A stretch of DNA of 64,000 nucleotides. Origin: a virus. Taxonomy: Duplodnaviria > Caudoviricetes. The stretch spans positions 1 through 64,000 of the IMG/VR virus record IMGVR_UViG_3300037440_000558, one strand, 5' to 3'. Positions 6,236-63,449 of this stretch are shown in pieces. Position 1 is the stretch's first letter, and every line of letters begins with the position of its first letter. The position numbers and the translations under genes are program-made. The notes beneath the pieces are model-generated. The model did no database searches, was not told where the DNA came from, and was given only the letters and a program-made list of their open reading frames with translations.

Positions 6236-6267
6236 GGGTTGGGTCCATGGGAGGAGAAACCCCGGAA

Positions 6268-11666: not shown

Positions 11667-12260
11667 ATGACACCGGTGATCGACATCGTAATCCCCTCCA
11701 TCCCACCCCGAGCCAAACAGCTCGAACGGGCAATCGATTCGGTTTACAGCCAAACCCTTCCTATCCGGAAGATTTGGCTCACTGTGGACCTTGCCCATCG
11801 GGGAGCCGCTGCCGCCCGCAACAACAGCCTTGACATGGCCGCCAACCACGAAACTGGCCCTCCCGATTTTGTCGCCTTCCTAGACGACGACGATTGGTGG
11901 TACCCACACCACCTCGAGACCCTCCACAAACTGCACCAAGAGACTGGCGCCGATTACCTATACTCCTGGTTCGATGGGAACCCCGCCCTGCAACGGTCGT
12001 CGTTTGCACTGAACCGCGGTAAGAAGTTCGACCCCGAGAACCCCCATCACACCACTATGACCGTCATGGTGGCCTGGTCTATCGCCGGCAGGATCCGATT
12101 CCGGACCGACCACCCCGACGGGTGGACCCTCCCACAGGAAGATTGGCGGTACATCCTGGACTGCCGCGACGCTGGGGCCACGTTCGCCGGCACCGGCGAC
12201 GTGACATGGTGGTACAGTAACCACGGAGGGAATACTTCAGGGATGGGTGACCGGTGGTAG
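11667..12260 (+). CDS. glycosyltransferase family 2
   Basis: IDIVIPS, GAAAARN, FVAFLDDDD motifs. Confidence 0.85.
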   Translation: MTPVIDIVIPSIPPRAKQLERAIDSVYSQTLPIRKIWLTVDLAHRGAAAARNNSLDMAANHETGPPDFVAFLDDDDWWYPHHLETLHKLHQETGADYLYSWFDGNPALQRSSFALNRGKKFDPENPHHTTMTVMVAWSIAGRIRFRTDHPDGWTLPQEDWRYILDCRDAGATFAGTGDVTWWYSNHGGNTSGMGDRW

Positions 12261-12482: not shown

Positions 12483-13148
12483 GTGACACCTGACGAGCGC
12501 CGCGACCGAGTACGGGCGATGGTGCTTGATGGGATCAGACAGAGACAAATCGCCGTCTCACTCGGGTACCACCTCACCACCATCCGCAGCGATATCCGGA
12601 AACTCCGCGAAGAAGGCCAACTGCCCCCACCCCATGGCCGGACCACCAAATCGGTTCTGGTCCCCGACCACCCGCGGGCAACCACCAAAGCTACCCGCAG
12701 CCGCCCCGAGCGGGCATTGCAACGCGCCGAAGCATTCAAGATGGTCCTCAGTGGCGCCGGCCATGAAGCGACAGCCGAGAAGTTCGGCGTCTCCAGGCGC
12801 ACCATCACCGAATGGGTGCAAGTGGAGATCGAACAGATCATCGTACCGGCTGTGGAGGAGTTGCGTAAGTTCCAAGTCGCACGGCTCGAGTCGTATCTCA
12901 TATACCTGCAACCGAAGATACAACAGGGTGACGACAAGGCGGTCAATGCCGCGATCAGGATTTCCGAGCAGATTGCTAAATACGAGGGGTTGTACAAGCC
13001 GGTCAAGGTTGACATCACCCACCACGAGCTGGACAAAGCCGACGCGGAGCTGGCCGACATGGTCAACACCGCCAAAGCCAAGATGGCGTTAGAAGAACAA
13101 CAACTCCGCGAGCAGGCCAATGCCGACCGTCGTCACTACGGAGACTGA
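12483..13148 (+). CDS. terS: terminase small subunit (HTH)
   Basis: Two HTH-like segments; directly upstream of terL; TACACT 6 nt before GTG (leaderless). Confidence 0.75.
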   Translation: MTPDERRDRVRAMVLDGIRQRQIAVSLGYHLTTIRSDIRKLREEGQLPPPHGRTTKSVLVPDHPRATTKATRSRPERALQRAEAFKMVLSGAGHEATAEKFGVSRRTITEWVQVEIEQIIVPAVEELRKFQVARLESYLIYLQPKIQQGDDKAVNAAIRISEQIAKYEGLYKPVKVDITHHELDKADAELADMVNTAKAKMALEEQQLREQANADRRHYGD

Positions 13149-14706
13149 CCGGCAACGGATCGCCGACCCGTACCACCCAGACGTCAACAGCGAGTCGTTC
13201 GACCTGGATGAGTACCTCGCCCAATTCGACCCACGGCTGCTGAACACCCCCGAAGGCCGTAGGACCCTGACCCGGCTCGACCCGTTCCTGTTCGCGATCG
13301 TCTACATGCGTCGACACCTCCGTAACCACCGCGGGGTTTTGTCGTTCGCCGACTGCCACTTCCTGTGGGCCAAGCAAGCCCGGTTGTGGGCGTTGATCGT
13401 AGACCCCGAACCCCGCGAATACCGAGACGCCTACGTCGCACCCCGCGACACCGGGAAAACCACCTGGTGGTTCCTGGTTATCCCCATGTGGGCCGCCGCC
13501 CATGGGCACGCCAGGTTCATCGCCGCGTTCGCTGACTCCGGTGGCCAGTCCGAGCTGCACTTAGCGACCTTCAAACGGGAGCTCGGCGACAACGTTTTCC
13601 TCAGGACCGACTACCCCGAGCTGTGTGAACCCGCCCGCCGGTACACCGGTAAAACCGTCTCCGACACCCAGACTATGTACTACGCTAAATCTGGGTTTGC
13701 GATGGCCGCCAAGGGGATCGACTCCACATCCTTGGGTATGAAGATCGACGAACACCGCCCCACCCATATCGTCTTCGACGACATCGAACCCCCCGAAGGG
13801 ACTTATTCGGAGTACCAGCGGCAGAAACGGCTGTCGACCTTCCAGAACGCTATCCTGCCGCTGAACGAGCGGGCGTTTGTCACGTTGATTGGCACTGTCA
13901 CGATGCCTGGGTCGATCGTCCATGCGTTGGTCCGTCACTCGGCAGATGATCTAGATGAGGACGAACGGAAAGCTGAGCAGTGGATCGTCGATGAGAACTT
14001 CAAAGTCCACCACGCTAAGCCGATCCTGACCCGTGATGATGGGTCGGAACGGTCGATCTGGCCGGAGAAATGGGACTTGGTATACCTGGCGTTGATCAGG
14101 CATACCCGGTCGTACAAGATGAACTTCGAGAACGAACCGGTCGGCACCGACGGGTCGTATTGGACCCCCGACGACTACACCTACGGCCGGCCAGAGGGGA
14201 TCACGTTCGAGCTGCTGTCGTTGGACCCGTCGAAGTCGACGAAGAACACGGCGGACTTTGCTGGCATCAGTGTGATCGGGTACGCCCCGGCCCGGAAGGG
14301 TGTTCCGGCGCAGTGTTGTGTTGAGGAAGCGGTCGAGATCCGGAAGGTCGGCGAGGAGCTGCGGTTGTTCCTGCTGGAGATCGTCGCTCGTAGGTCTCGC
14401 ATCCGAGCGGTACTGGTGGAGATCAACGACGGTGGGGAGCATTGGCAATCGATCTTGCACAATATGGGGGTCCCGGTGGTGACGGTCACCCAGACTGAAC
14501 CGAAGGAGGTTCGGGCGGGGAACGTCCTCAACCTGTACCAGCTTGGGCAGGTGAAACATGCTCGGCGGTTGGTGAAGTTGGAACAGCAGCAGATGTCGTT
14601 CCCCCGGGCGGCGCACGACGATTTGTTAGACTCGGTTGGGTCTGGTGTTTGGCGGCTCCTGCGTCCTCGTCGCCGTGCCGGGGGGGAGACACTACACCAA
14701 CACTGA
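13120..14706 (+). CDS. terL: terminase large subunit
   Basis: Walker A APRDTGKTT, Walker B IVFDDIE, IGT coupling motif, RNase H-like LSLDPS...DFAGI and HDDLLDS. Confidence 0.95.
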   Translation: MPTVVTTETDRQRIADPYHPDVNSESFDLDEYLAQFDPRLLNTPEGRRTLTRLDPFLFAIVYMRRHLRNHRGVLSFADCHFLWAKQARLWALIVDPEPREYRDAYVAPRDTGKTTWWFLVIPMWAAAHGHARFIAAFADSGGQSELHLATFKRELGDNVFLRTDYPELCEPARRYTGKTVSDTQTMYYAKSGFAMAAKGIDSTSLGMKIDEHRPTHIVFDDIEPPEGTYSEYQRQKRLSTFQNAILPLNERAFVTLIGTVTMPGSIVHALVRHSADDLDEDERKAEQWIVDENFKVHHAKPILTRDDGSERSIWPEKWDLVYLALIRHTRSYKMNFENEPVGTDGSYWTPDDYTYGRPEGITFELLSLDPSKSTKNTADFAGISVIGYAPARKGVPAQCCVEEAVEIRKVGEELRLFLLEIVARRSRIRAVLVEINDGGEHWQSILHNMGVPVVTVTQTEPKEVRAGNVLNLYQLGQVKHARRLVKLEQQQMSFPRAAHDDLLDSVGSGVWRLLRPRRRAGGETLHQH

Positions 14707-22485: not shown

Positions 22486-23103
22486 TCAGATGACGTTGGC
22501 GTTCAAACCCAGATCACCGGTGTCGGTGGTCAACTGCCCCGCCGACCCGAACGACTCCGGCACCCCGTTCTGCCACCACAGTTCGCCTGCCGCCGTGATA
22601 TCCACCGCTGCCCCACCCGCGGTCAGACTGACCTGGAACGTGTCTGTTGCCGCTCCGACCACGTGGTACAAAGTCCCCTCCGACAGCCCGGTGGGCAGCG
22701 ACTCCGCGTGGACGTTGTACACCGCGACCCGGCCCCCGTCGACCAGGCCATGGCCAGCCGACTTGATCGTGTTGTTGGTGACCCCGTCCGCATCGACCGC
22801 GGCGAACCCTGACAGCGTCGACCCGATCAGCGCATGCCCGTAGAACGTCGACCCGCCGCTGGTGTCCCAAAACCCGTAAGTGATCCCAGTCGACCCGGAT
22901 GGCATCTCATGGGTGACCGGGGCGTTGTTGTCTGAAACCCCGAGGGCTTCCGCGGACCATGCCACTGGTTGCCGGACGTATGACCCGCCAGTGATCTCAT
23001 CCGACCCGCTGTCATCGGGGATCGCGTCGTGGACGCTGACCGCACCGATAGCGTCGGTCAGCCCGACCACCATAGCGTTTTTCCCATTCGTGTTGAAACC
23101 CAC
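22486..23103 (-). CDS. phage tail-fibre/decoration-like protein
   Basis: EITGGSYVRQPVAW...ITYGFWD..GG.FY pattern with inserted GHGLVDG.RV...LPTGL..GTLY.V module; SD GGAGG. Confidence 0.7.
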   Translation of the reverse strand: MGFNTNGKNAMVVGLTDAIGAVSVHDAIPDDSGSDEITGGSYVRQPVAWSAEALGVSDNNAPVTHEMPSGSTGITYGFWDTSGGSTFYGHALIGSTLSGFAAVDADGVTNNTIKSAGHGLVDGGRVAVYNVHAESLPTGLSEGTLYHVVGAATDTFQVSLTAGGAAVDITAAGELWWQNGVPESFGSAGQLTTDTGDLGLNANVI

Positions 23104-23200
23104 GTCCTCTTCCTCCGGTTCGGGCGGTCTTACTTTCCCTGCCGAGTCTACTGTACACTGGTGCCCGACGAGTAGTCTCCCAAGCCAGACGGGACGCGGG

Positions 23201-24967
23201 ATGCCGGGTACGGTCGAATTGGTTGAGAGCTTCCGGGAGTTGCAGGAAGCCGAACCTGGCTATACTCGGGCCGACGAATTCTACAACGGTGAAGTGTCTG
23301 AGGCGTTCGCTTCGGCGAAGGTGAAACGGCTGCTGGCGAAAGCCCAAGCCGACGAACTCGACGACTTCGGCTACGCGAAGATCCCCGTCGATGTGGTCGC
23401 GGGGAAGCTGCGCATCTTGTCGGTGGTCGCGGTCCACGCCGAACCACCCGAACAGGAGATCCCCCGAGAACAGGACACTGTGCTGCAACACGCGCAGGAC
23501 CTGATCCAGCAGATCATCCAGCGGAATCAGTTTATGGCCGAGTATGTCGGTGTACACCTGGACGTGTGCAAGTTCGGGGACGCCTACCCGTTTGTGTGGC
23601 CGGTCACCGACGACCAAGGTGTGGTCACCGATGTCGACATGTTCATGCACTCACCCTACACCGTACGGGTGTTCTATGGGGAGGAGAATCCGCTGCAGGT
23701 GTCCCACACCATCAAAGCGTGGGATATCGAAATCCCCCCACCGGACGACCCCTTCGGGAAACCCGAGAAACGTCGCCGGGCCAACCTGTACTACCGGGAC
23801 CGGATCGAGAAATGGATCACCGCCCCCGGCCGGGCCGGGAAGCTGCTCGAAGACTGGGAACCCTACGAAGAAACCAACCCCACACAAGACGACGACAACA
23901 ACCCGACCACCGACAGCGACCCCGGACAGCTCCCACCCGGTCACGAGATCCCCAACCCCTACGACCAGATTCCGTTCTTCCACCTCCGCAACAGCCGACC
24001 CTACGGGATCCCCCGGCACCGGCCCGCGTATGGGCCGCAGCTGGTAATCAACAAACTGGTCGAAGCACACATGGTCACTATCGACTTCCACTCCTTCCCG
24101 CAACGATACGCGTTGATGGACCCCAAACAAGACGACCCGTTGGCAAACTTCGTCGACCCGATCAACCCCGAAGACGAGGACGACGACCCAGAGGGCGACC
24201 ACAACGCCAGCCAGCTCCGGTCCGACCCCGCCGCGGTGTGGCGGCTCCGGGGGATGAACTCGGTGGGGCAGTTCAACCCCGCAGACCCATTGGTGTTCCT
24301 CCAGCCATTCGACCGGTACGTTAAAGCAATGAGCGAGTTGACCGGGGTCCCGCTGTACAAGTTCGGAACATCGTTCGCTCAGCCACCATCCGGGACGGCG
24401 TTGGCAAAGATCGACGCACCGGTCGACGAAGAAGCCGAACAGCTACAAGACCGGCTCGGGTCAGTGTGGGCGGACGCGTTCGAGTTTGCGCTCCGGCTGC
24501 TCGGGGTGGAGGATATCCGGGTGGAGGTGAAGTGGAAGCCGGTCCGGACTGTCACCGACCAGGAAGGGTGGCAGACCCTCGGGTTGAAGATCGCGTCGGG
24601 GGTGACGGTCCGGCAGGCGCTGCTAGAAGCCGGGTACACCTCCGAGCAGGTCGACCAGATGCTGCCGGATGATGCCACCCAGGATCTGATTCGGCAGGTG
24701 CAGATGCTGAACCAGATCGGGACTGCGGTACAGTCGTTGGGTGCGGGGGTCGGGTTGGGTGTCCTGTCGCAGGAGCAGGCTGCGGCGGCTGTCCAGCGGA
24801 TCTTGGCGTTGGGTGAGCTGCAGGGTGGCGCGCCGGATGACCGTTTGGCGTTGCCACCAGACAAGTACGGGTCGGCCGGGGGGAAGACGGAGCTGCTCGA
24901 ACCGAAAGATCCGAACCCGCCGCCGCCGGCACTGCCGACACCGGGTGGTGGCACCGATGGGCAATGA
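23201..24967 (+). CDS. portal protein (SPP1 gp6-like)
   Basis: YYxG-like FYNGEV, FGYAKIPVD, FGDAYPFVW, FPQRY, PSGTAL motifs; ATG 23201 preferred over 22880. Confidence 0.9.
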   Translation: MPGTVELVESFRELQEAEPGYTRADEFYNGEVSEAFASAKVKRLLAKAQADELDDFGYAKIPVDVVAGKLRILSVVAVHAEPPEQEIPREQDTVLQHAQDLIQQIIQRNQFMAEYVGVHLDVCKFGDAYPFVWPVTDDQGVVTDVDMFMHSPYTVRVFYGEENPLQVSHTIKAWDIEIPPPDDPFGKPEKRRRANLYYRDRIEKWITAPGRAGKLLEDWEPYEETNPTQDDDNNPTTDSDPGQLPPGHEIPNPYDQIPFFHLRNSRPYGIPRHRPAYGPQLVINKLVEAHMVTIDFHSFPQRYALMDPKQDDPLANFVDPINPEDEDDDPEGDHNASQLRSDPAAVWRLRGMNSVGQFNPADPLVFLQPFDRYVKAMSELTGVPLYKFGTSFAQPPSGTALAKIDAPVDEEAEQLQDRLGSVWADAFEFALRLLGVEDIRVEVKWKPVRTVTDQEGWQTLGLKIASGVTVRQALLEAGYTSEQVDQMLPDDATQDLIRQVQMLNQIGTAVQSLGAGVGLGVLSQEQAAAAVQRILALGELQGGAPDDRLALPPDKYGSAGGKTELLEPKDPNPPPPALPTPGGGTDGQ

Positions 24968-34996: not shown

Positions 34997-35563
34997 GTGG
35001 CCGACCCGCAGAACCTGGTCATGGGACCGGGGACCCTGTTCATCAACGACTTCGATGCCACCGAACCCGACGACACAGATGTGGACACTCCCCCATCGTC
35101 TGCGGCCGGCTGGGAGAACATGGGTGGTACGGTCGGCGGGATCACCGTCAACTACAACCAGACGTTCACTGAGTTGGTCATGGACCAAGTCGTCGACGTC
35201 GCCGGCCGTCGACTCACCGGCAGGGATGTGCAGATCCAGACCCAGCTGGGGGAGGTGACGCTGGAGAACCTACGGTATGCGTTGAACGACGGGATCATCA
35301 CCACCGGCGCCGGGTTCAAGAAGTACGCACCAGCGTTCACCGACTCCGCGACCCAGCCGGCGTACCGGGCGTTAATCCTCGACGGGTGGGCACCCGGCGC
35401 GAACCAGCTCCGCCGCCGGTTCATCTCCCGCAGGATCTTGTCAATCGCAGCGGTCGGGGTCGCATACCAGAAAGATGGGCAGACCGTCTACCCGGTGACG
35501 TTCGGTGCCCACTACGTGGATGACGAGACCGAACCATACGTCACCATCGACGCCACCAGCTGA
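34997..35563 (+). CDS. major tail protein
   Basis: NLVMGPGTLF...MGGT.GG..V.Y.Q.FTEL.MDQ pattern; SD GAGGAGG. Confidence 0.85.
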   Translation: MADPQNLVMGPGTLFINDFDATEPDDTDVDTPPSSAAGWENMGGTVGGITVNYNQTFTELVMDQVVDVAGRRLTGRDVQIQTQLGEVTLENLRYALNDGIITTGAGFKKYAPAFTDSATQPAYRALILDGWAPGANQLRRRFISRRILSIAAVGVAYQKDGQTVYPVTFGAHYVDDETEPYVTIDATS

Positions 35564-36892: not shown

Positions 36893-39800
36893 GTGACACA
36901 ACCCATCCGCCGTGGCGGCAGGGGATTCAAAATCGCTGATGGGTTTGTTGAAGTCACAGGTGTCCATGACCGGTCCCGCACCCGCCGTGCTGCGCAGGAG
37001 GCTGGTGGCGACGCCGGCAACTCGTTTACCCGGGCGATGGCGGACCGGGTCGGGGGGAAGAACAGCAGCAATCAGATCGCCAAAGCTATGCTGGCCGGGT
37101 TGGGGACGGCGGTCAAAGGTCTGCTGGTCGGGTCGGTCGGGTTGGCCGCGATTGCCGCTATCGGCCAGGGTGTGGCTGCGGCGCTGGCGGGGTTGACTGC
37201 GGCTGCGGCTGGTGCGATCCCGCTGATCAACTCGCTGGCTGCGGCGTTGGCCACCGCCGCAGGTGCGGCGTTGGCGTTACCTGGGGCGATCTCTATTTTG
37301 GCGTTTGCGATTGCGTCGTTGAAGGTCGGCCTGGCCGGTGTCGGGGAGGCGTTGAAGGCCACCGGCGGGGATGCTGCGACGTTCGAGGAGGCTATTAAGG
37401 ACTTGGCGCCGGAGGCGCAGAAGTTCGTCCGGGTTATCCGGGAGATGCGGCCGGCGTTCAAAGAGCTCCGGCTGGATGTCCAGAACGCACTGTTCAAAGA
37501 CCTCGGGGAAAGTATCCACGAGCTGGCACACGTCCACATGGTGTCGCTGCGGTCCCAGATGGTCGCGGTCACCACCAGCATCAACCGAGGGCTGATTGCC
37601 GCTATCGAGCGGCTGTCGACTGCGGCAGCGAAGGCGGACATCCGGTCGATTTTCTCCGATGCTGCCAGTGCTGTGTCGAATGTCACGGAGGCGTTCGGGC
37701 CGTTGGTGCAGATCCTGTTGGACCTGTCGACGGTTGGCGCCAAGGTGGTGTCGGGTCTGACTCAGGGGTTCGAGGGGTTTGTCATCCGGTGGCAGGAGCG
37801 GATCGCGGAGATGCGCGAGTCCGGCGAACTCGAGCAGATGATACGCGATGGTCTCGACGCGCTCAAACAGCTCGGCCGGGCGTTGGGTGACCTCGGTGGG
37901 ATCATTAAGGGGGTGTTCGGGGCTGCCGGCCAAGCCGAGAGCAGCGGTGGGCTGTTCGGGCTGTTGGACCGGCTGAACGAGTTTGTGAACCGTGGTGACA
38001 CGCAGAAGAAGCTGGTTGCTTTCTTCGACAACGTGGGTCGGGTTGGGTCAGCGTTGATGCCGGTGCTGTCGGCGTTGTTGGGTGCGTTAGGTACGGTGTC
38101 GGGGGCTATCGGTGATATTGCAGAGCGGACCGCACCACATTTGGCTGCATTCCTGACCCTGTTCGGCGATGCGTTGGCCCGGCTGGCCCCTGCGTTTATC
38201 GCTCTCGGTCCAGCTGTGGTTGCACTCGGGAAGGGGTTAATGCCGCTGGCAGAGATCTTGTCAGATTTGGTGGTCGCTGCAGCACCAGGGATTGAAGCTT
38301 TCCTGTTGGGCCTCGGGGGCGCCCTACATGAACTGGCCCCAGTTGCTGGCCCCGTCGGCAAAGCCCTAGGCGACCTGATGACCGCAATCGCACCGCTACT
38401 CCCCGTGCTGGGGGGTGCTTTGGCGCAGAGCCTATCTGCTGCTGCGTCGGCACTGTCCGCGTTCGCAACCGCCTTTGCACCGCTGATCGAACAATTCGCC
38501 AGCGGAGTCATGAAAGAGATGGACCCCCAAACCCTCGTCAAGCTTGCCGAAGCCGGGGCACTGCTCGGTGAGTCATTCGCCAAACTCGCTGACGAACTCG
38601 CCCCCATGATCCCGTTGCTGGTTGAGTTCACCGTATTCGTCCTGAACACGTCGGCGATCTCAGGCATTTTGATGGTTACCGCCGCAATCGACCAACTCAC
38701 CCGCGCGCTCGACATATGGAAGAAGCCGTTCGAGTTCGCCATCGGTCTGTTCCACACGTTCCAAAACATCGACTGGGGCGGCACCGGCTCCGCTATCGGC
38801 AACGCGTTCACTACTGCCTGGGATGCCGTCTTCCGGTTCGTATCCGGTGTGGTCACTTGGTTTACGAACCTGCCCGGTCAAGTAGTCGGGTTTATCTCCG
38901 AACTGCCAGGCAAAGTCGCCGCTGTGTTCCTCGACCTGACTGACCGGGCTCTCTACTGGGTCGGGTATGGGATCGGTCGCATCCTGCGATTCTTCATCGA
39001 TCTCCCCGGCCAAGTGATCGGGTTTATCAGCGGCCTACCCGCCCGGGTTGGTGCGATCATCCACAGCACCATGGAACGCGCCCGTGTTTTGGTGTCCCGC
39101 GGAATCTCCAACGTCGTCGGGTTCTTCAAAAACCTCCCCGGCCGGGCACGGACCGCGATCTCCAGCCTGTGGTCCCGGATGTCCGGCGTGTTCTCCTCCG
39201 CCGGGTCGAATGCCAAAACCGCAGCTAAGAACCTGGTCAGTGGTTTTATCGGCTTCCTCAACGACCTACCCGGGAAAGCCCGCGCAGAAGCGATCAAGGT
39301 CAAAAGCAGGATTGTGTCGGCATTCTCCGGCGCCAAAGGCTGGCTATACAGCGCTGGCCGTAACATCTTGGTCGGGCTGGCGAATGGGCTCAGAGGTGCT
39401 ATCGGCGTAGCTGTCCAAGCAGGCAAAGACGCCGCCGGCAGCGTCCTGAGGGGGATCAAGGAAGGTCTGGGTATCCGTTCCCCGTCGGCGAAGTTCCGCG
39501 ACGAGGTCGGATATTGGATTCCCGCTGGTATCGCCGAAGGTATCAAACTGAACCGGCGAGCTGTTGTCGACGCCATGGCTGTCCTGGGCCGGATGACTGA
39601 GCATGACATGCGGGTGGCCACAGATGCCACAATTGGGCCGGTCGGTATGAAGATCACCCGGCAGGTCACTTCCGATATTGAGGCTGCCCATGCGGCCCGA
39701 GCGATCGAATACCAACTGCGGCGGCTCGTTGAAGCGCAGGAACGGGCCGCCCGGGGCGGCATGCAACAGATAACGATCCCGATCCAGATCGGGGATGAGG

Positions 39801-39898
39801 TCACCCGGGTGGTGGAAGTCACCATAGGCAACTTCGCCCACGACGTCAAGACCACCAGCCGCCAATATGGGTCTAAAGGCAGGGCAACCAGGATATGA
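36893..39898 (+). CDS. tape measure protein
   Basis: 1001 aa, Ala/Gly-rich helical with periodic W/F; SPS..FRDEVGYWIPAG near the C-terminus. Confidence 0.9.
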   Translation: MTQPIRRGGRGFKIADGFVEVTGVHDRSRTRRAAQEAGGDAGNSFTRAMADRVGGKNSSNQIAKAMLAGLGTAVKGLLVGSVGLAAIAAIGQGVAAALAGLTAAAAGAIPLINSLAAALATAAGAALALPGAISILAFAIASLKVGLAGVGEALKATGGDAATFEEAIKDLAPEAQKFVRVIREMRPAFKELRLDVQNALFKDLGESIHELAHVHMVSLRSQMVAVTTSINRGLIAAIERLSTAAAKADIRSIFSDAASAVSNVTEAFGPLVQILLDLSTVGAKVVSGLTQGFEGFVIRWQERIAEMRESGELEQMIRDGLDALKQLGRALGDLGGIIKGVFGAAGQAESSGGLFGLLDRLNEFVNRGDTQKKLVAFFDNVGRVGSALMPVLSALLGALGTVSGAIGDIAERTAPHLAAFLTLFGDALARLAPAFIALGPAVVALGKGLMPLAEILSDLVVAAAPGIEAFLLGLGGALHELAPVAGPVGKALGDLMTAIAPLLPVLGGALAQSLSAAASALSAFATAFAPLIEQFASGVMKEMDPQTLVKLAEAGALLGESFAKLADELAPMIPLLVEFTVFVLNTSAISGILMVTAAIDQLTRALDIWKKPFEFAIGLFHTFQNIDWGGTGSAIGNAFTTAWDAVFRFVSGVVTWFTNLPGQVVGFISELPGKVAAVFLDLTDRALYWVGYGIGRILRFFIDLPGQVIGFISGLPARVGAIIHSTMERARVLVSRGISNVVGFFKNLPGRARTAISSLWSRMSGVFSSAGSNAKTAAKNLVSGFIGFLNDLPGKARAEAIKVKSRIVSAFSGAKGWLYSAGRNILVGLANGLRGAIGVAVQAGKDAAGSVLRGIKEGLGIRSPSAKFRDEVGYWIPAGIAEGIKLNRRAVVDAMAVLGRMTEHDMRVATDATIGPVGMKITRQVTSDIEAAHAARAIEYQLRRLVEAQERAARGGMQQITIPIQIGDEVTRVVEVTIGNFAHDVKTTSRQYGSKGRATRI

Positions 39899-57072: not shown

Positions 57073-57786
57073 ATGGCCAACAGGAAGACCAGCCTGCAGC
57101 ACCTGGTAGACCGGTGCCGGGCTGTCGGCTGGCGGGTCGACCAGACCAGCAACGGCCACTACAAGGTGTTCAACCACGCGGGTCAGACTTTCACCCTGGG
57201 TGGGACGGGCAGCAAATCATCTGCCCTGGTGAACGAGAGACTCGCCAACAGATATGGTCTCAAAACCGCCGAGCGGATGATGGAGACGAAACCAGCAGCC
57301 GAACCACAACAGCCACCGTTGGTGTTGGGTGGCGGTGACCGGGTGGACGGGCAGGCGGTGATCAACCGTCAACCGGCTATCCTGGCCACCGTGTTGGCGT
57401 CCGGTCCGCTGCGGGACACCGAACAGGTGCAACTGGAGGACGGGTCGACCGTCTACCAGTGCACCTCCTGCGGTGACACCCGCAATAGCGTGCTTTCGGC
57501 CCGGGGACACCAAGCCAACCACACCCGGAGGCAGAAGAAAGCCGCAGCCGAGCAGGAGGCACCCGAGCCCGCGCCGGCTGCTCCGAAACCGACGGCGGCC
57601 AAACGGAACCGGTCCGCGACCCCACCGGGGCGGCAGGCACCGGCGGCCGGGACATCCGAGACCCGGATGGTGGTGTACGATTTCCCGTTGCGGCCGGACC
57701 TGATGGTCCGGTTGACCTTGCCAGTCGACCTGACTGAGAAGGAAGCCGCCCGGCTGGTGGGGTTCGCCCGCACACTGGCGTTCTAG
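57073..57786 (+). CDS. hypothetical protein (HicA-like N-terminus, C2H2-like finger)
   Basis: GWRVDQTSNGHYKVF; CTSC...GHQANH. Confidence 0.6.
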   Translation: MANRKTSLQHLVDRCRAVGWRVDQTSNGHYKVFNHAGQTFTLGGTGSKSSALVNERLANRYGLKTAERMMETKPAAEPQQPPLVLGGGDRVDGQAVINRQPAILATVLASGPLRDTEQVQLEDGSTVYQCTSCGDTRNSVLSARGHQANHTRRQKKAAAEQEAPEPAPAAPKPTAAKRNRSATPPGRQAPAAGTSETRMVVYDFPLRPDLMVRLTLPVDLTEKEAARLVGFARTLAF

Positions 57787-57799
57787 CCAGCCACGCCCC

Positions 57800-57828
57800 C
57801 ACCCCCCCGGGAGATCCCCGGGGGGGTG
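57800..57828. terminator. hairpin at the convergence of opposing operons
   Basis: CACCCCCCCGGG-agatc-CCCGGGGGGGTG. Confidence 0.6.
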
Positions 57829-58045
57829 GTCAGTGTTGGCGGGTCGACCACCGCACCGACCCTACCGCCGTAGGCTTGGCACCGTTGGCACAACCCCCAC
57901 ACCCGGGCCACAACTGCTGGTCCCCAGATGGGGACCTTCCACCCGGCGGCAGTGCCAAGGTCATGGATGGTCCGGACCGCGACGGCCGGCGACAGGATGA
58001 GCCGGCTGGCGCATCCGAACGTCTGGCAGGTCAGCGTGGTGCTGT

Positions 58046-58714
58046 TCATGCGACGACCGCCGCGGGTGGCCGGCCGCCGGTGTTGGCGTCGTGCAGCCGG
58101 TACAACCAGGTCCGTTCAGGCAGGTGGTGGAACTGTGCCCCGGCGTCAAGCAGATGCAGCAGAAGCCCGAAATCTTCACAGTCGCTGCTGATATTCCCAG
58201 GTGAGGCCCTAAATCGCCCTGGTTGGGGGAACCCGCCGACCCTGGTGACCAGCTCCCGCCTGACCACATGGGTCACGGGGATGAACCCGCCGCGGTGGCG
58301 TAGCCACCACTCTTGTTCCGGGCCGAACGGGACGCCGAACGGCGATACCACCCTGCCGTTCTGCAGGGTGGCCAGCGGGTCACGTTGGCCGGCGAAATCC
58401 GGGTACGGGTACACTAAGTCGGCGCCGGTCTGTTCGGCTGCGTCCAGACAAGCCTGGAGGTGGTCCGGGTATAGGATATCGTCGTCGTCCAGGAATGCGA
58501 CCCATTCGGTGGTCACCCGCTGCAACGCCTTGTTCCGGGTGGTGGTGGCACCTTCGCGGTCCCGGTCGAGCTGCATCACGTACCCGGGGAACGCCTGCTC
58601 CGGATGTGCCACCCATTCGGTCTGGTCCAGCACCGACTGGGTGGCTGCCCGCAGTAGATCCTCCCGCCCGGGGATGGTCGGGATGATCACCGTCACCGAC
58701 CGGTTAAACACCAC
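58046..58714 (-). CDS. glycosyltransferase family 2
   Basis: VTVIIPTI, GATTTRN, WVAFLDDDD, EDF. Confidence 0.9.
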   Translation of the reverse strand: MVFNRSVTVIIPTIPGREDLLRAATQSVLDQTEWVAHPEQAFPGYVMQLDRDREGATTTRNKALQRVTTEWVAFLDDDDILYPDHLQACLDAAEQTGADLVYPYPDFAGQRDPLATLQNGRVVSPFGVPFGPEQEWWLRHRGGFIPVTHVVRRELVTRVGGFPQPGRFRASPGNISSDCEDFGLLLHLLDAGAQFHHLPERTWLYRLHDANTGGRPPAAVVA

Positions 58715-59015
58715 CTGGACCCTCCCCTACGACAGCTACGCTGCGGACCCGGAATTGCACGTTCAACCGGTCCGGGTGGTAACACGCCCACGTCTCACCT
58801 GGTTTCAACGTCGCCCCGGCTGGTGGCCGCGCGTCGGCGGGCCACCGGTGTCCGTACTCCAACGTGTCCTCACATGCCTGCACTGCGGCAGCCAGGGTGT
58901 ACGCCACCCCGATATACTTCGTGTCCCTAGCCACCCCCAATCCGAGGTTGAGTGTTGCTTCTTCTGTCGCCACGTAGACGAACAACTGCCTGCCTCCTAA
59001 GAACGCCCCAACCAC
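58704..59015 (-). CDS. hypothetical protein
   Basis: Fills the gap between two GT genes with short overlaps. Confidence 0.5.
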   Translation of the reverse strand: MVGAFLGGRQLFVYVATEEATLNLGLGVARDTKYIGVAYTLAAAVQACEDTLEYGHRWPADARPPAGATLKPGETWACYHPDRLNVQFRVRSVAVVGEGPGGV

Positions 59016-59641
59016 CTGAACAGGGCCGTATCGTACGGGTACAAGCCGACATCTCGCTGTGGCGCGGCAGACCCCGGTGTCGGCCCGAGTGTATGCCCAT
59101 CCCAGAAGTCATAGTAGTACAGGCACCGGTCGATGTATACCGTATCCCACACCGGGTGTACCCGGATCAGACCCTCCAACCACCGGAAATCTCCCCCGGG
59201 CTGGTCGGTGAACTGGGGGGCCGACAACACCAGATCCCTGCGGATCGGGCATTTCAAGCTGATATGCCGCAGCCAAGTCCCGGAGTGGTTCTGCCCGCGG
59301 GCCGGGTCGTGGATTATCTCAGCTTGGTATACCCCGTCGCGGGTGTACAGGATCCGGTAGCCGACGAAGTCGGGAACGGCCTGCCGCCAGATACCCGCCA
59401 TCACGGCGCTGACATAGTCCGGGGTGACCAGATCGTCGTCGTCGACCGAGACCACGAACCGGCCCCGGGCAGTGTGGAACATCTCGTTGCATTTCGTGCC
59501 CACACCCACCCGGTCGTCAGCATGGACCAACACCTCGACCTGGCCGGCGAACACCTGGACCTGCGGTTCGAGCGTCCACAGCAGCCGCGACAGCAACGAC
59601 CGGCGGGAACTGACCGTCGGTATCAGGATACTCAGCTCCAC
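58997..59641 (-). CDS. glycosyltransferase family 2-like
   Basis: LSILIPT, VGTKCN, FVVSVDDDD, GGDFRW. Confidence 0.8.
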   Translation of the reverse strand: MELSILIPTVSSRRSLLSRLLWTLEPQVQVFAGQVEVLVHADDRVGVGTKCNEMFHTARGRFVVSVDDDDLVTPDYVSAVMAGIWRQAVPDFVGYRILYTRDGVYQAEIIHDPARGQNHSGTWLRHISLKCPIRRDLVLSAPQFTDQPGGDFRWLEGLIRVHPVWDTVYIDRCLYYYDFWDGHTLGPTPGSAAPQRDVGLYPYDTALFRWLGRS

Positions 59642-60297
59642 AGGTGTTTCCTAGCCCGGTACAGGGCACGGTCGGCGTCGTGCCACCGTTCGTTGTCGGT
59701 GTAGGTACGGTCGCTGGGGGATTTCCGCACAGTCGGGTGCAGGTGTTCGGTGACCGCGTCCGCAGCGTACGCCCACACCCGCCGGTGTTTGGCTGTCTCG
59801 TTCAGCTCGTTGTCCGCGTAGTTCTTACGGTACCCAGGGTGGAACACCATCCCGGGGTACCCGACAGACAGCCCATGCTGCACGGCGTAGGGCCGGTGGA
59901 CCAGCCACGTCACCGACCATTCGGTTTCTGGTGGCCGCAGCAGGTCGTTCAAACCGATCACTTCGGCGCCGGTCCGGTTGGCGCAATCCAACGCAGCAGC
60001 CAACCACCCGGGGTGGTACCGGATATCGTCCTGGCCGACCACCACCCACTCGGTGGTGGTGACGGCAAACCCGAGATTGGTGGCGGTCACCCCGGACGGT
60101 TCGACCGTCGTATCTAGAACCACCGCCAACGACCCGGCCACACCCACTTGAGACAGGGCATGGTGTGTGGCCGGGTCGGCGGTGTGGCGCACCACCACTG
60201 GTATGGCCCCAGGTGTGCCCCACAGCTCGTCGAGGACCCTCAGCAGCGAATCTGGCCGGCGGTAGGTCGGGATAACTACCTGAACAGCTTGGCCCAT
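59632..60297 (-). CDS. glycosyltransferase family 2-like
   Basis: VVIPTYRRP, ATNLG, GQDD, YADNEL. Confidence 0.8.
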   Translation of the reverse strand: MGQAVQVVIPTYRRPDSLLRVLDELWGTPGAIPVVVRHTADPATHHALSQVGVAGSLAVVLDTTVEPSGVTATNLGFAVTTTEWVVVGQDDIRYHPGWLAAALDCANRTGAEVIGLNDLLRPPETEWSVTWLVHRPYAVQHGLSVGYPGMVFHPGYRKNYADNELNETAKHRRVWAYAADAVTEHLHPTVRKSPSDRTYTDNERWHDADRALYRARKHLWS

Positions 60298-61325
60298 GCG
60301 GTCGCGGCCTCCTTAAATATGACCAACCACGGTTGCCCGGGGTGGCGGGGGTTGCTGTCGGGGACCCGCGGGCAACCTGGTAGGTGGTCGGGGAGTTGAC
60401 TGACCAGTTCGGTGTAGCAGTCGGCTACGGCATTGCTGCCCGGATTAACCGGCCGCAGGGTGATATCCGCTACCGCTTGCCATAGGTGCTCGTTCATCTC
60501 CATCCCTGGTGTCTGCTTCAACAGGTTGACGTATACGTCGGACTGCTTCCGATGGCGCACTGACGGCGCGCCGGACCGGACCGCGTAACCGAGATGGTCG
60601 CAGACCTTCTTGACCAGGACACCAGCCCAGATATCATCGAACTGGTCGAACCCGTAGGCCGGCCCGAACAGGCCGAAATACAGTGCGGGGGTGAGCGCGG
60701 GCCGCCACGCAAGGTTCATCCCGCACATGGGGAAGAACACCCCCCGGGGGATGGCTTGGGTTGTGCCCGCGGGTGTAGGTGGTAGCCGCAGGTCGGGATA
60801 ATGTAACCAGGTGGGGGCGTCCAGGTCGGGAACCCCGGACCACAACCCGTGGCTCAGCCAGGTCTCATGTATTCCCCGGATCCGGTAAGGGAACCCGCGT
60901 GCAGGTGGTCCGCCGGAGAAGGTGTCAACCCACTCGGTGGTGGCGTGGTTGGCCAACGCCTGCCGGTGGCCGGCGATCCAATAGGGGACCATGGATTCCG
61001 GGTAGCAGTCGTTGTCCAACGTCAGGACGATGTCACCCACATCGGCCATCTGCCCCGCTATGTAATAGCCGAACGACCGACACGCCGAGCTGTTCGACGG
61101 GACAATCCATGACAGATCGCCGAGCTCTCGCTCGATTGCTGCCCGGTCGTAGGCGAGGATCTCCATTCCCCTCCCACTGAGTTTGTCCAAATCTTCCCCG
61201 GGCAGTGGCCCGGTGTCCTGGACCACAATCACCCGGACATCCCGGTCACGGTGGAACTCCGTATCCCACACCCCCAGGAACCGCAGATGGGGTAGATGGT
61301 TAGGCACTACCACATATGCTGTCAC
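60276..61325 (-). CDS. RGP / UDP-arabinopyranose mutase-like protein (GT75)
   Basis: SACRSFGY, TLDNDC, RGFPY, SHGLWSGVPDLDAPT, FPMCGMNLA, ALYFGL, FDDIWAG...VCDHLG match plant RGP motifs. Confidence 0.9.
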   Translation of the reverse strand: MTAYVVVPNHLPHLRFLGVWDTEFHRDRDVRVIVVQDTGPLPGEDLDKLSGRGMEILAYDRAAIERELGDLSWIVPSNSSACRSFGYYIAGQMADVGDIVLTLDNDCYPESMVPYWIAGHRQALANHATTEWVDTFSGGPPARGFPYRIRGIHETWLSHGLWSGVPDLDAPTWLHYPDLRLPPTPAGTTQAIPRGVFFPMCGMNLAWRPALTPALYFGLFGPAYGFDQFDDIWAGVLVKKVCDHLGYAVRSGAPSVRHRKQSDVYVNLLKQTPGMEMNEHLWQAVADITLRPVNPGSNAVADCYTELVSQLPDHLPGCPRVPDSNPRHPGQPWLVIFKEAATAWAKLFR

Positions 61326-62167
61326 TTAACGCTCCTGACCCACCCCATGGTCCGGTGGACCCCCTCTTCCCACCTGACCCGTGGTGTCCAGCCGCGGACC
61401 GCGTGGACAGTTCGGTTGTCGTTGACCACCCGGGAGATGTCTCCCGGGATGCCGGCCACCCGGCGGGTGTTGTGGTATCGCAGATGGTTTAGCAGCTGCT
61501 GGATAGTTAGTTCGTTGTCCGGCCCACCGCCGACGTTGTAGGTGTTACCTTTGTACGCGTCGAAATGCTCTACCTGGTCGATCAACAGATCCACATAGTC
61601 ATCTACATACAAGACATCCCGGCTGTTAGACGGGTCGACCCACAGGTCGATCTGTTTCCCGGCCACGGCGCAGCGGATGAAGTGGGTAACCCACCCGCCA
61701 TCTGCGGTCCCGTCCTGTCCTGGCCCGTAGACGCTGGACGGCCGGTTCACCACACAACGCACGCCGTACAACTCGGCATACATCTGCAGGTACAACTCAC
61801 CGACCAGTTTGGACATCCCGTAGGGGGTGATTAAGCGATCCTCGCCGGGAGTAACCTTCATTGTGGAAGTGTAGACCACGGGCAGTTCCCAAAGGCGGGC
61901 TGCTTCGCAGACGTTGAACGTTCCCACGGTGTTGTCTAGGAAATCGCTGGCCGGGTTCCTCAGGGACCGCTGCGAGGAACAGTTCGCACCCAGGTGTACG
62001 ATGAGCGCTGGATGGCGCCGCAAGATCACCCGTTCGAGCTCCGGCCAGTCCGCGGTCGACACGCCGGTGATCTTGTCGATCCCGATAGCCTCATGGTCTG
62101 CGGACAGCCGCCTACGCAGGTGCCTGCCGATGAAACCGTCCGCACCTGTCACCAAGATCCCGCTCAT
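61322..62167 (-). CDS. NAD-dependent nucleotide-sugar epimerase/dehydratase (extended SDR)
   Basis: LVTGADGFIG, TPYGMSK (YxxxK), VYGPGQ, YNVGGG. Confidence 0.9.
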   Translation of the reverse strand: MSGILVTGADGFIGRHLRRRLSADHEAIGIDKITGVSTADWPELERVILRRHPALIVHLGANCSSQRSLRNPASDFLDNTVGTFNVCEAARLWELPVVYTSTMKVTPGEDRLITPYGMSKLVGELYLQMYAELYGVRCVVNRPSSVYGPGQDGTADGGWVTHFIRCAVAGKQIDLWVDPSNSRDVLYVDDYVDLLIDQVEHFDAYKGNTYNVGGGPDNELTIQQLLNHLRYHNTRRVAGIPGDISRVVNDNRTVHAVRGWTPRVRWEEGVHRTMGWVRSVK

Positions 62168-63186
62168 GTGGCCCCCAAACCGTAGGCTGCCACCCACTGC
62201 GACCAATGCTGCTGGATCGTGTACTGCTCGGCCAGCTTCCGCGCGTCACGACCCATTGCCTCCCGCATCGGCCGGTCGTTGACCAGGTCCCGCAGATACC
62301 GTCCGAACTGATATGGCTGTTTCGCTAGATAACCGGTCACCCCATGCTGTACGAACTCCCGGTAGGGCGGTTCGTCCGACGCCACCACCGGGATCCCCCG
62401 GGCGGCGTACTCCAACGCCTTGATGTACGACTTCGAGTTGTTGAACGTCGTCCTGGTCAACGGGGCGATCCCAATGTCGAACGACAGGTGCTGGTAGTAC
62501 GTGGTCAGGTCGGGAATCCACTCAATCGACGCACACGGGACCGGCAGGTTGTAGCTGGTGCCGAGGAACACGTACAGCAGGTTCCGTTGCCGCTGCCCCA
62601 ACAGGACCAGCTGGTCCCGGACCAGGTTGAAATCCCGGTCGTGGGTCGGGCTGGAAGTGTACCCGACCGTGACCATATCAGGCCACTCGATCGACTTCTC
62701 ATCCCGGCCCCGGATGTCCAGCGGCACCCCCGGCAGGGTGAACACCTCCTGGTCAATGTAGTTCGGCAGAACCACCACATCCGAGTTGTACCGGCGTATC
62801 TGTTCAGCCAACGGCTCGGTTGACACCGTCACCCGGTCGGCCACCCTGAGGCAACCTTCCATCACGTCGACGGTTTCCGGGTGGCTGTAGAAGTAGTATG
62901 GCCGCTCCGAAGACGGGTCGATGTTGAACACGTCGTCATCGACCTCATACACCAGCATATTCCGGCGGCGGCGTGCCAAATGTTGCCACATGATCGCCGG
63001 GCCGGTTTTGCCGATCCGCTGCCCAACGATCACCAGGTGGGTGTTCCGATGGTCGCCCAGTTTCTGAGCGTACTCCGCCGGATATCCGTGGTGGCGCAGC
63101 TGGTCCAGCGGCAGCTTGACCCGGTAATGGAAGCAGCCACCTTCGTCAGCTGCCCACCCGAACACACCCGTTGGGGTGTCGACCAT
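62164..63186 (-). CDS. glycosyltransferase, GT-B fold (GT4-like)
   Basis: YEVDDD, DIGIAPL....FN.SKSYIKALEYAARGIPVVASD..PY. Confidence 0.9.
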   Translation of the reverse strand: MVDTPTGVFGWAADEGGCFHYRVKLPLDQLRHHGYPAEYAQKLGDHRNTHLVIVGQRIGKTGPAIMWQHLARRRRNMLVYEVDDDVFNIDPSSERPYYFYSHPETVDVMEGCLRVADRVTVSTEPLAEQIRRYNSDVVVLPNYIDQEVFTLPGVPLDIRGRDEKSIEWPDMVTVGYTSSPTHDRDFNLVRDQLVLLGQRQRNLLYVFLGTSYNLPVPCASIEWIPDLTTYYQHLSFDIGIAPLTRTTFNNSKSYIKALEYAARGIPVVASDEPPYREFVQHGVTGYLAKQPYQFGRYLRDLVNDRPMREAMGRDARKLAEQYTIQQHWSQWVAAYGLGAT

Positions 63187-63191
63187 TCCTT

Positions 63192-63449
63192 CTACTCCTC
63201 TGATCTCAGTTCGGCTGCCGTCGTCTCGGCCTGCTCGCATTGTGTCGCATATGAGAGCATCCCGAGTGAATCCCACGCCATGACATCGGGCGCAACCAGG
63301 GTCCATACCATCCGCCGACCGTCATCTGCCTGGATGACCTCAGCGAGCAGGACCCACTTGGTGGTCATATCACCGTGGGTGCGGAGCACCGCCGAGATGG
63401 CTTGATCCAACTCGGCGATGATCCGCTTCTTGAGTTCCGGGTCGACCAT
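63192..63449 (-). CDS. hypothetical protein
   Basis: TAATG-coupled to the upstream gene; KWVLLAEV...MAWDSLGML. Confidence 0.55.
   Translation of the reverse strand: MVDPELKKRIIAELDQAISAVLRTHGDMTTKWVLLAEVIQADDGRRMVWTLVAPDVMAWDSLGMLSYATQCEQAETTAAELRSEE

Follow-up and report, generated by a model that had tools for sequence, protein, structure and literature searches.

Two bacterial GT75 enzymes have been characterized, MtdL from the A201A pathway of Marinactinospora and Hyg20 from the hygromycin A pathway of Streptomyces; both are actinobacterial, and they are GDP-L-Gal/GDP-L-Fuc pyranose-furanose mutases (PMC9937993; PDB 7xpr, 7yua). In MtdL, R257 contacts the beta-phosphate and the ring oxygen, and the R257K variant is inactive; the equivalent arginine is absent from the inactive plant class-2 reversibly glycosylated polypeptides (RGPs), including AtRGP5 (PMC9937993). 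The plant members of the family comprise the class-1 UAMs/RGPs (AtRGP1-3, OsUAM1/3) and a solved class-2 protein, OsUAM2 (PDB 8cid). Some phages make furanose donors for their DNA with other enzyme families, either de novo through A5P-isomerase to UDP-Araf (RB69, DLP3) or by a Glf-type, FAD-dependent UDP-galactopyranose mutase (Pootjesviridae) (PMC13326640). In actinophages, clusters of small soluble GT-A transferases are found in the virion glycosylation operons of Che8 (gp108-110), Corndog and Myrna, and in Che8 the modification is made on the capsid and the tail tube (Freeman et al. 2023, as summarized in PMC12363180). A similar cluster is formed by the GT-MT-GT genes in Zukovirus phages of Streptomyces. 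None of these operons has a GT75, and our literature search turned up no publication that describes a GT75 from a phage.

The window analyzed here is a stretch of 64,000 nucleotides from an 80,560-bp IMG/VR record with TerL, portal and tape-measure genes, which confirms that the GT75 gene it contains is phage-encoded. The phage is uncultured and probably a lytic siphovirus, and its host is probably actinobacterial. The record is ca. 90% complete, so that gene absences in it are weak evidence. Positions 63186 to 57783 of the minus strand are one tightly overlapping leftward operon, coding in this order for a GT4, a short-chain dehydrogenase/reductase (SDR), the GT75, GT2a, GT2b, orf103, GT2c and orf88. 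The span 60276-63186 holds exactly the first three. The GT4 (GT-B; 62164..63186, 340 aa; PF00534, 1.1e-11; phrog_7162, 6e-46) is read from ATG 63186, with a Shine-Dalgarno site ahead of it; a longer ORF with a start at 63306 is probably not real. The SDR (61322..62167, 281 aa; PF01370, E 2e-39), an extended-SDR protein of the NDP-sugar epimerase/reductase type, is better started at ATG 62167, a start that shares the letters ATGA with the GT4 stop. The GT75 (60276..61325, read from 61325 to 60276, 349 aa) opens with a GTG that is preceded by an AGGAG Shine-Dalgarno site and overlaps the SDR stop as GTGA. The three genes are thus translationally coupled, and the first-pass annotation was right to place the GT75 and the SDR together in a multi-glycosyltransferase operon. 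Downstream of the GT75 each gene overlaps its neighbor by 4 to 22 nt. GT2a (59632..60297, 221 aa), preceded by an AAGGAGG Shine-Dalgarno site, starts 22 nt before the GT75 gene ends and is followed by GT2b (58997..59641, 214 aa). Orf103 (58704..59015), a small ORF without a family match, occupies the space between GT2b and GT2c (58046..58714, 222 aa) and overlaps both; orf88 (57783..58049) overlaps the GT2c stop, is the last gene of the operon and converges on rightward genes. At the other end, orf85 (63192..63449, also on the minus strand) lies between a DUF2303 gene and the GT4 with a TAATG overlap upstream, and its membership in the sugar unit is uncertain.

The GT75 assignment is practically certain. 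The HMM search that the first-pass annotation had proposed gave a match to PF03214 (RGP) far beyond chance (E 1.3e-40; 140 bits, the cut-off being 23.8), covering residues 5-315 of the protein and profile positions 8-316 of 342. All the motifs quoted there in RGP order occur in the translation, namely SACRSFGY (residue 80), LDND (103), RGFPY (143), SHGLW (158), FPMCGMNLA (198), DDIWAG (230) and VCDHLG (241). The AF2 model (pLDDT 94.3, pTM 0.93) has the GT-A Rossmann-like N-domain, the unique GT75 core and the C-terminal helical domain. Its top seven Foldseek matches all fall on the two solved GT75 folds, MtdL and OsUAM2 (E 1e-19 to 2e-21, TM 0.72-0.76; best to MtdL, E 2e-21 and TM 0.76; to OsUAM2, E 1e-19 and TM 0.74), and the others are generic GT-A folds at E of 6e-7 or weaker. 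With the plant enzymes, including OsUAM2, the protein shares the Pfam RGP domain, the SACR and RGFPY motifs and the arginine that is autoglycosylated. However, the description "plant-type" does not hold, since its distance to rice UAM2, the one solved plant member (only 69 bits by phmmer), is much like that to MtdL (54 bits). It is ca. 20-25% identical to the plant and MtdL structures (ca. 22% to MtdL), and its closest relatives, at 45-82% identity, are viral or bacterial. In the tree, which contains no plant sequence, it falls inside a separate prokaryote/virus radiation, in a compact subclade (clade A) found mostly on phage contigs.

The active site is largely that of MtdL and Hyg20, with the same fold, DxD aspartates, nucleophilic Arg, two flanking Asp and Mn-binding His, but it has been remodeled. 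The phage enzyme retains D104 and D106 (MtdL D109 and D111), R143 within RGFPY (R159), D167 (D195), D231 (D260) and H258 (H287), all of them invariant or nearly so in two sets of 93 and 137 homologues; D167 and D231 are present in 93/93 and 137/137, and R143 in 93/93 and 136/137. The middle residue of the DxD is Asn, giving DND in place of the DDD of the characterized plant and bacterial enzymes. The substrate-binding arginine expected of an active mutase, which the class-1 plant enzymes retain, is missing, the equivalent of MtdL R257 being Gln228, so that mutase activity could be lost or changed. This glutamine is found in all 23 clade-A members, while the other 70 homologues and 134 of 137 library representatives have Arg. 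Q229, D87 and the stacking I15 of MtdL are likewise replaced, by Met, Ser and His. In the same 23 members an arginine, Arg259, is fixed next to the metal-binding His258, and it may compensate for the one that was lost.

From these residues we predict a Mn2+-dependent NDP-sugar pyranose-furanose mutase that is probably active. It is rather unlikely that clade-A proteins have given up this activity and work as ordinary or arginine-directed glycosyltransferases, self-glycosylating or priming a glycan on themselves or on a phage protein. Such a role would fit the clade-wide loss of the R257 equivalent, given the dead R257K variant and the inactive class-2 plant proteins without this residue (PMC9937993), as well as the change from DDD to DND, and a GT-A fold with a DxD in a family whose members autoglycosylate on Arg. 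Yet the Mn-binding His258, which the class-2 RGPs lack, is kept together with Arg143, Asp167 and Asp231, and Arg259 and Lys260, in the loop that closes over the diphosphate in MtdL, could replace the missing contact. The pairing with an SDR that modifies NDP-sugars, strict and coupled in translation, also suits a role in donor synthesis.

This pairing extends well beyond our phage. An SDR lies within 3 kb of the GT75 in 44 of the 98 loci having flanks, SDR homologues co-occur with GT75 homologues on at least 19 contigs, and in nearly all viral contigs the SDR is within ca. 0.7 kb, mostly directly upstream (2.7 kb away in one, L008). SDR steps precede the GT75 mutase in the Hyg20 and MtdL pathways, and the phage pair matches this known bacterial logic of a sugar-nucleotide step, then a mutase, then a transferase, although those genes belong to antibiotic clusters and ours is phage-borne. 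The SDR, the only one in the genome, has a GxxGxxG motif and the Thr-Tyr-Lys triad (T...YxxxK). Its best PDB matches, the CDP-tyvelose 2-epimerase TaTyvE (9rl0, E 4.5e-31; PMC13098431) and short GalE (7ys8, E 4e-29; also 4zrm), reach only ca. 100 bits, the protein is ca. 50 residues shorter, and its regiochemistry cannot be assigned. A canonical TyvE seems excluded, for the VAM, TNK and Gln205 signatures (PMC13098431) are replaced by CSS, TMK and Gly, even if a D-G-G-W loop resembles that of TyvE. A canonical GalE was also rejected, and no equivalog model passed its cut-off against the SDR. Nor is it an RmlB-like 4,6-dehydratase, having TSTMKV and no Thr-Asp-Glu motif. In most other viral GT75 loci, however, the partner is precisely such a dehydratase, with the sequence STDEVYG, which hints at a 6-deoxyhexose as the sugar.

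The first-pass annotation had proposed a self-contained pathway of pyranose epimerization, furanose conversion and transfer; taken as a route from UDP-Xyl to UDP-Arap and on to UDP-Araf, this is not borne out. An SDR that is neither a dehydratase nor a canonical GalE or TyvE leaves the step from UDP-Xyl to UDP-Arap unsupported; neither a UDP-xylose synthase nor a nucleotidyltransferase is encoded, and an NDP-sugar from the host would be required. The specific scheme in which the SDR is a 4-epimerase of UDP-xylose (or UDP-glucose) and the GT75 a plant-type mutase making UDP-L-Araf for the transferases is unlikely. It draws on the plant-like SACR (S80, C82), P8 and D230. Plant UAMs also take UDP-Galp (PMC9937993), and a variant from UDP-Glc through UDP-Gal to UDP-Galf would need UDP-Glc alone from the host, L-Ara and D-Gal having the same ring configuration. 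It is opposed, apart from the missing synthase and the distant SDR matches, by the position in the tree, by His10 and Gln228 in the places of the stacking Ile and the canonical Arg, and by the dehydratases of related viral loci, which lead to 6-deoxyhexoses and not to pentoses. The base-contact positions are mixed (P8 plant-like, S79 MtdL-like, H10 for the stacking Ile), and the nucleotide cannot be called; of the UDP-selecting residues P, D and D (T13, N42 and S86 in MtdL) the phage protein shares P8 alone with the plant enzymes and has Gly at position 39 and Ser at 79. The contrast that had been drawn with a host supply of arabinose through decaprenyl-phospho-arabinose is also weakened, because the host is only inferred and MtdL and Hyg20 are themselves actinobacterial (PMC9937993).

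The operon is a cytoplasmic glycan-building cassette. None of its proteins has a transmembrane segment, and the cluster includes no flippase, polyprenyl-phosphate GT or other membrane protein. The GT4 upstream is as first described, and it shares 33% identity with gp5 of Streptomyces phage Zuko (E 3e-52). The three downstream genes (58046-60297) had all been called GT2s; they are indeed small soluble GT-A-like proteins with DxD motifs (GQDDIRY in GT2a, VDDDD in GT2b, LDDDD in GT2c), but only GT2c passes the PF00535 cut-off of 23.3 bits (52 bits, 8e-14), GT2b (23.0) and GT2a (22.2; 1.5e-4) being just below. Searches against PHROG place GT2b and GT2c in glycosyltransferase families with values of the order of 1e-24 to 1e-27 (phrog_14775, 7.7e-24 and 7.7e-27), whereas GT2a has only a weak match (phrog_14945, 1.5e-5). 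GT2b is similar to Che8 gp108 in the GT domain at the N-terminus of that protein (31% identity, E 4e-14) and GT2c to gp107 of Streptomyces phage KimJongPhill (34%, E 3e-26), with a weak match to Che8 gp110 (E 0.003 only); Che8 gp109 found no match among the transferases of the operon. GT2c also has a GT2-like paralogue on the plus strand (11667..12260; PF00535, 3e-8), two genes upstream of the TerL gene; this fifth glycosyltransferase shares 30% identity with GT2c and 35% with KimJongPhill gp107. The operon itself has no methyltransferase, unlike the GT-MT-GT sets.

The cassette here is away from the head genes, at the end of a leftward operon whose genes are early or DNA-metabolism-like, with an exonuclease among those upstream. 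In three other phage lineages it sits in the head module: in one (L005) the order is TerL, portal, capsid, GT4, dehydratase, GT75 and DUF3431, and in the other two (L017 and L004) it adjoins the portal and capsid genes. This, with the kinship of GT2b to Che8 gp108 and the fifth transferase near the TerL gene, argues for virion proteins as the target, with roughly an even chance, and the earlier suggestion of the virion as a target remains sensible. At the C-termini of capsid and tail tube, where a Che8-type system would be expected to place O-glycans, nothing is remarkable besides terminal Ser/Thr, and no glycosylation site was identifiable. The earlier suggestion of DNA fares worse. A furanose on a hypermodified base, as with UDP-Araf or UDP-Galf for 5-hydroxycytosine, would share with RB69, DLP3 and Pootjesviridae a phage-made NDP-furanose donor for phage-encoded transferases (PMC13326640), and it would suit the neighborhood of the operon and the nucleotide-pool genes of the genome (PurZ-like, dUTPase/DCD-like). 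Still, a thymidylate-synthase-like 5-hydroxycytosine synthase belongs to those routes, and no gene of this type (hydroxylase or hydroxymethylase) was found in the 80.5 kb, which leaves no 5-hydroxy or 5-hydroxymethyl pyrimidine as acceptor. The likely base modification, 2-aminoadenine through PurZ, offers no hydroxyl, and the transferases are closer to those of actinophage virion glycosylation than to T4-type DNA GTs. With the head-module location in relatives also against it, glycosylation of DNA is very improbable. A glycan placed on a host molecule (a cell-wall polymer, lipid carrier, protein or small molecule) for superinfection block, receptor masking or anti-defence is quite improbable too. 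GT4 and SDR homologues do occur in Streptomyces chromosomes, and some GT4 homologues carry the JGI label "involved in cell wall biosynthesis." Against this stand the lack of membrane functions in the cluster, the same head-module cassettes and the failure to find an integrase in the 80.5-kb record, which makes lysogenic conversion unlikely.

Glycosylation of the virion with a furanose is thus our best reading, to which we give a probability of about 0.45. The SDR would convert a host NDP-sugar into a pyranose with the C4 hydroxyl set for ring contraction (galacto-type). The GT75, with Mn2+ held by D104, D106 and H258, Arg143 as nucleophile and Asp231 as base, would then turn this pyranose into an NDP-furanose. 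Finally, the small GT-A transferases together with the GT4 would build a short furanose-containing glycan on virion proteins during particle assembly, the candidate acceptors being the capsid, the tail tube or a decoration protein. A bolder version, possible although we hold it doubtful, starts from the rebuilt pocket of the phage-rich subclade, in which the canonical Arg has been lost, a new Arg stands by the metal-binding His and a His takes the place of the base-stacking Ile. This pocket and its dedicated SDR would make an undescribed furanose donor, for example a 6-deoxy-hexofuranose or a furanose on an unusual nucleotide, and the phages would coat their capsids with the product. If true, unrelated phage lineages ranging from 37% to 70% GC would share a phage-specific way to furanosylate their virions that does not depend on FAD.

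The gene at 60276-61325 on the minus strand is a genuine member of family GT75. All the motifs reported for it in the first-pass annotation are present in the 349-aa translation, and the profile search that it proposed gave a match to the RGP/GT75 family (PF03214) with an E value of 1.3e-40 and a score of 140 bits (cut-off 23.8). An AlphaFold model built from 35 homologues (pLDDT 94.3, pTM 0.93) had only two strong PDB matches by Foldseek, the bacterial mutase MtdL (E 2e-21, TM 0.76) and the plant enzyme rice UAM2 (E 1e-19, TM 0.74), with generic GT-A transferases next in the list at E ≥ 6e-7. No PHROGs or NCBIfam family covers the protein. The public gene call is a 296-aa product that starts at Met54 and lacks the conserved N-terminal nucleotide-binding strand (the copy in the ESM Atlas is shortened as well). 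We place the true start at GTG 61325, since homologues align from residue 1-5, an AGGAG Shine-Dalgarno site precedes it and there is a GTGA overlap with the stop of the upstream SDR. The stretch originally singled out (60276-63186) holds three genes, all on the minus strand: GT4, with its start at ATG 63186 preceded by a Shine-Dalgarno site (a start at 63306 was rejected), the SDR, from ATG 62167 with an ATGA overlap with the GT4 stop, and GT75. Downstream come GT2a, GT2b, orf103, GT2c and orf88, each with a 4-22 nt overlap with the gene before it. A DxD-type motif is found in all four GT-A proteins of the cluster, and no hydrophobic segment in any of its proteins, from GT4 through orf88. A scan of the cluster for promoters and terminators gave no signal above chance. 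A fifth transferase gene, GT2-like and paralogous to GT2c, is located at 11667-12260, two genes ahead of the terminase.

The description of the enzyme as plant-type did not hold, as rice UAM2 reached only 69 bits and MtdL 54 bits in phmmer searches against the PDB; the protein belongs instead to a virus-associated subclade (clade A). Its metagenomic relatives are 45-82% identical, and pattern scans recovered homologues at 66 loci in MAGs of bacteria or archaea (Planctomycetota, Chloroflexota, Patescibacteria, Acidobacteriota and others), in 14 IMG/VR contigs and in 75 contigs from metagenomes. A phylogeny had also been suggested at first pass. In the maximum-likelihood tree built from 93 sequences, the window protein groups with the IMG/VR contigs L003-L005, with contig L017 and with proteins encoded on contigs of 37-44 kb (SH-aLRT 98-99), and cellular GT75 sequences fall in other clades; separateness from plant and MtdL sequences, which are outside this tree, is read from bit scores and identities. 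There are two more viral GT75 groups, one of them with low GC (36-40%). A full-library HMMER search put the family at ca. 1100 clusters at 50% identity, two of which make up clade A, and the nearest ESM Atlas cluster is rich in Uroviricota. Against GenBank phages, megablast of the cluster gave no match and tblastn of GT75 a single one, to an uncultured jumbo phage. L017 (CAZZDD010000015.1, 39.8 kb, binned as “Peribacteria” and encoding portal and capsid) and L018 (JADLBB010000281.1, deposited in a Chloroflexota MAG, with a GT75 gene nearly identical to that of L005) look like phage contigs deposited as parts of MAGs.

Active-site residues were mapped from the structures and mutants of MtdL (PMC9937993) and an HMMER alignment. 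D104 and D106 (the DxD), R143, D167, D231 and H258 are kept in the window sequence; by equivalence with MtdL, R143 would be the nucleophilic, autoglycosylated Arg, D231 the proposed base and H258 a Mn ligand (PMC9937993). The position of MtdL R257 is occupied by Gln228, as in all 23 clade members, and by Arg in 70 of 70 other sequences and in 134 of 137 library representatives. In MtdL, this Arg contacts the beta-phosphate and the ring oxygen and the R257K mutant is inactive; its equivalent is missing in the inactive class-2 RGPs of plants (PMC9937993). The clade-A enzymes may, then, have lost mutase activity. They do share (23/23) an Arg259 adjoining the Mn-binding His, in the loop that covers the diphosphate in MtdL, along with His10 at the site of the base-stacking Ile, DND for DDD, Ser80 and Cys82. 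Judging from these residues, the pocket has probably been remodelled and is still functional, with an altered specificity. The specificity residues of MtdL gave mixed signals, and no call of nucleotide or sugar was made from them. In any case, a subclade missing an essential Arg amounts to a natural experiment on the mechanism of GT75, which is still unsettled.

The SDR has a Rossmann motif and a Thr...Tyr-x3-Lys triad and is not a 4,6-dehydratase, as the Thr-Asp-Glu motif is absent. Its best PDB matches were TaTyvE, a CDP-glucose/tyvelose 2-epimerase (E 4.5e-31), and GalE enzymes of the short type (E 4e-29 and 2e-26), and no NCBIfam equivalog came near its cut-off. The signature segments of TyvE, VAM, TNK and Gln205 (PMC13098431), are replaced by CSS, TMK and Gly. 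Close homologues (ca. 280 aa, 50-86% identical) are often labelled “CDP-paratose 2-epimerase” by JGI, and at least 19 contigs, including the 14.7-kb contig of the nearest relative, are apparently common to the SDR and GT75 homologues by an indirect comparison, in which contigs of identical length were paired between the match lists. At other viral loci, GT75 is adjoined, mostly directly upstream, by an RmlB-like dehydratase (STDEVYG, YSASK; E 1e-46 to RmlB structures). Of the 98 loci with flanking sequence, 44, among them all the viral ones, have an SDR no more than 3 kb from GT75, which, with the dehydratase pairings, indicates that the conserved unit is an NDP-sugar SDR plus GT75. GT4 was discarded as a specific partner of GT75 (a single contig was shared within the top 120 matches), leaving SDR-GT75 as the conserved core. 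SDR steps precede the mutase in the hygromycin A and A201A pathways, and the unit fits their logic. The route from UDP-Xyl through UDP-Arap to UDP-Araf envisaged earlier is unsupported; by analogy, the dehydratase partners at other viral loci hint at a 6-deoxyhexose. Incidentally, gp4 of the cultured Streptomyces phage Zuko (L084 1319-2380), next to Zuko's homologue of GT4, has STDEVFG and YSASK and shares 41-47% identity with the RmlB-like 4,6-dehydratases adjoining GT75 in IMG/VR contigs, so that its label “UDP-glucose dehydrogenase” is probably wrong.

The source record is a linear IMG/VR virus of 80,560 bp (ca. 90% complete by CheckV; the window is bases 1-64000). Its large terminase (13120-14706), portal (22880-24967), tape measure (36893-39898) and tail proteins (extending to 45583) are those of a siphovirus-like phage. 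The portal shares ca. 31% identity with the portals of Streptomyces and Microbacterium phages, the GC content is 60-67%, and we infer that the host is likely actinobacterial. The SDR is the only one in the genome, and no sugar nucleotidyltransferase, tyrosine or serine integrase or thymidylate-synthase-family gene (PF00303) was found in the 80.5-kb record (ca. 90% complete). Three nucleotide-pool genes, all on the plus strand, code for an adenylosuccinate-synthetase homologue (PF00709, E 1.7e-31; PurZ-like), a PurB-like protein and a protein with a dUTPase/dCTP-deaminase-like domain (whole-record G000 73450-74715, i.e., 11451-12716 of L002, a further stretch of the record; window 6247-7743; L002:15299-16141), and the phage may have a 2-aminoadenine (Z) genome. 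The cassette is at the end of a leftward operon, after exonuclease and RDF-like genes. Of the two exonucleases, at L002:3448-4026 (-) and L002:4579-5295 (-), one is similar to RNase AS, a poly(A)-specific enzyme of mycobacteria (NF033638, E 2e-51, 174 bits with the cut-off at 200), and the other is RNase_T/DnaQ-like.

Virion, DNA and host surface had all been offered as targets of glycosylation, and only the first stands as best candidate. DNA was set aside as the leading idea by the lack of a PF00303 gene in the ca. 90% complete record, and lysogenic conversion or envelope modification by the lack of an integrase and of transmembrane segments. In L005, the gene order is TerL, portal, capsid, GT4, dehydratase, GT75 and DUF3431, and portal and capsid genes likewise adjoin the cassette of L017 and that of L004, the latter with a methyltransferase. 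The transferases resemble actinophage proteins: GT2b is 31% identical to the GT domain of Che8 gp108 (E 4e-14), GT2c and the GT near the terminase have 34-35% identity with KimJongPhill gp107, and GT4 is 33% identical to Zuko gp5. A PDB sequence search with GT2a and GT2c gave generic GT2 matches only. The location by head genes in relatives, the actinophage-like GTs, the soluble proteins and the lack of an integrase and of a hydroxy-pyrimidine pathway make virion proteins the best candidate acceptor, to which we would give an even chance. Two points weaken this reading: in this phage the cassette comes at the end of the leftward operon described above, after exonuclease and RDF-like genes, and no specific acceptor site could be named. 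The C terminus of the tail tube (34997-35563) reads ...TIDATS. Following the major capsid gene (31822-32940), 33050-33664 (+) codes for a SAP/HeH-like N terminus, five ADPPP repeats and a Pro/Thr-rich linker; such Pro/Thr-rich segments are O-glycosylated in actinobacteria, and the product is a candidate acceptor on sequence grounds. A DUF3431 (PF11913) protein of ca. 180-190 aa is found directly downstream of the clade-A GT75 in L003, L005, L017, L018 and L093; in L004 it stands behind the methyltransferase, ca. 0.8 kb downstream of GT75, and the window has none there. The DUF3431 protein may be the cognate transferase. GT2a has no similarity to it and was rejected as its homologue.

In the best mechanism that we can offer, with a probability of about 0.45, the SDR and the GT75 mutase would supply a furanose donor for virion glycosylation. 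To our knowledge, the only GT75 mutases characterised are those of plants and of two antibiotic pathways in actinobacteria, and virion glycosylation has so far been shown only for a few mycobacteriophages. Furanose sugars are strong antigens and recognition signals and, as far as we know, are absent from animals. No paper on a phage GT75 was found in the literature searched; the furanose donors that phages are known to make, for DNA, are UDP-Araf, through an A5P route, and UDP-Galf, through a Glf-type mutase (PMC13326640). The contribution of this window is the clade-specific change of the active site, the SDR-GT75 core and the actinophage context with five GTs. Clade-A enzymes could serve for making rare NDP-furanoses. 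If the enzyme is active, this would be a second, flavin-free way for phages to obtain furanose donors, and it would extend virion glycosylation to chemically unusual glycans and to many uncultured phages, with a bearing on receptor masking, particle stability and antibody evasion in phage therapy.
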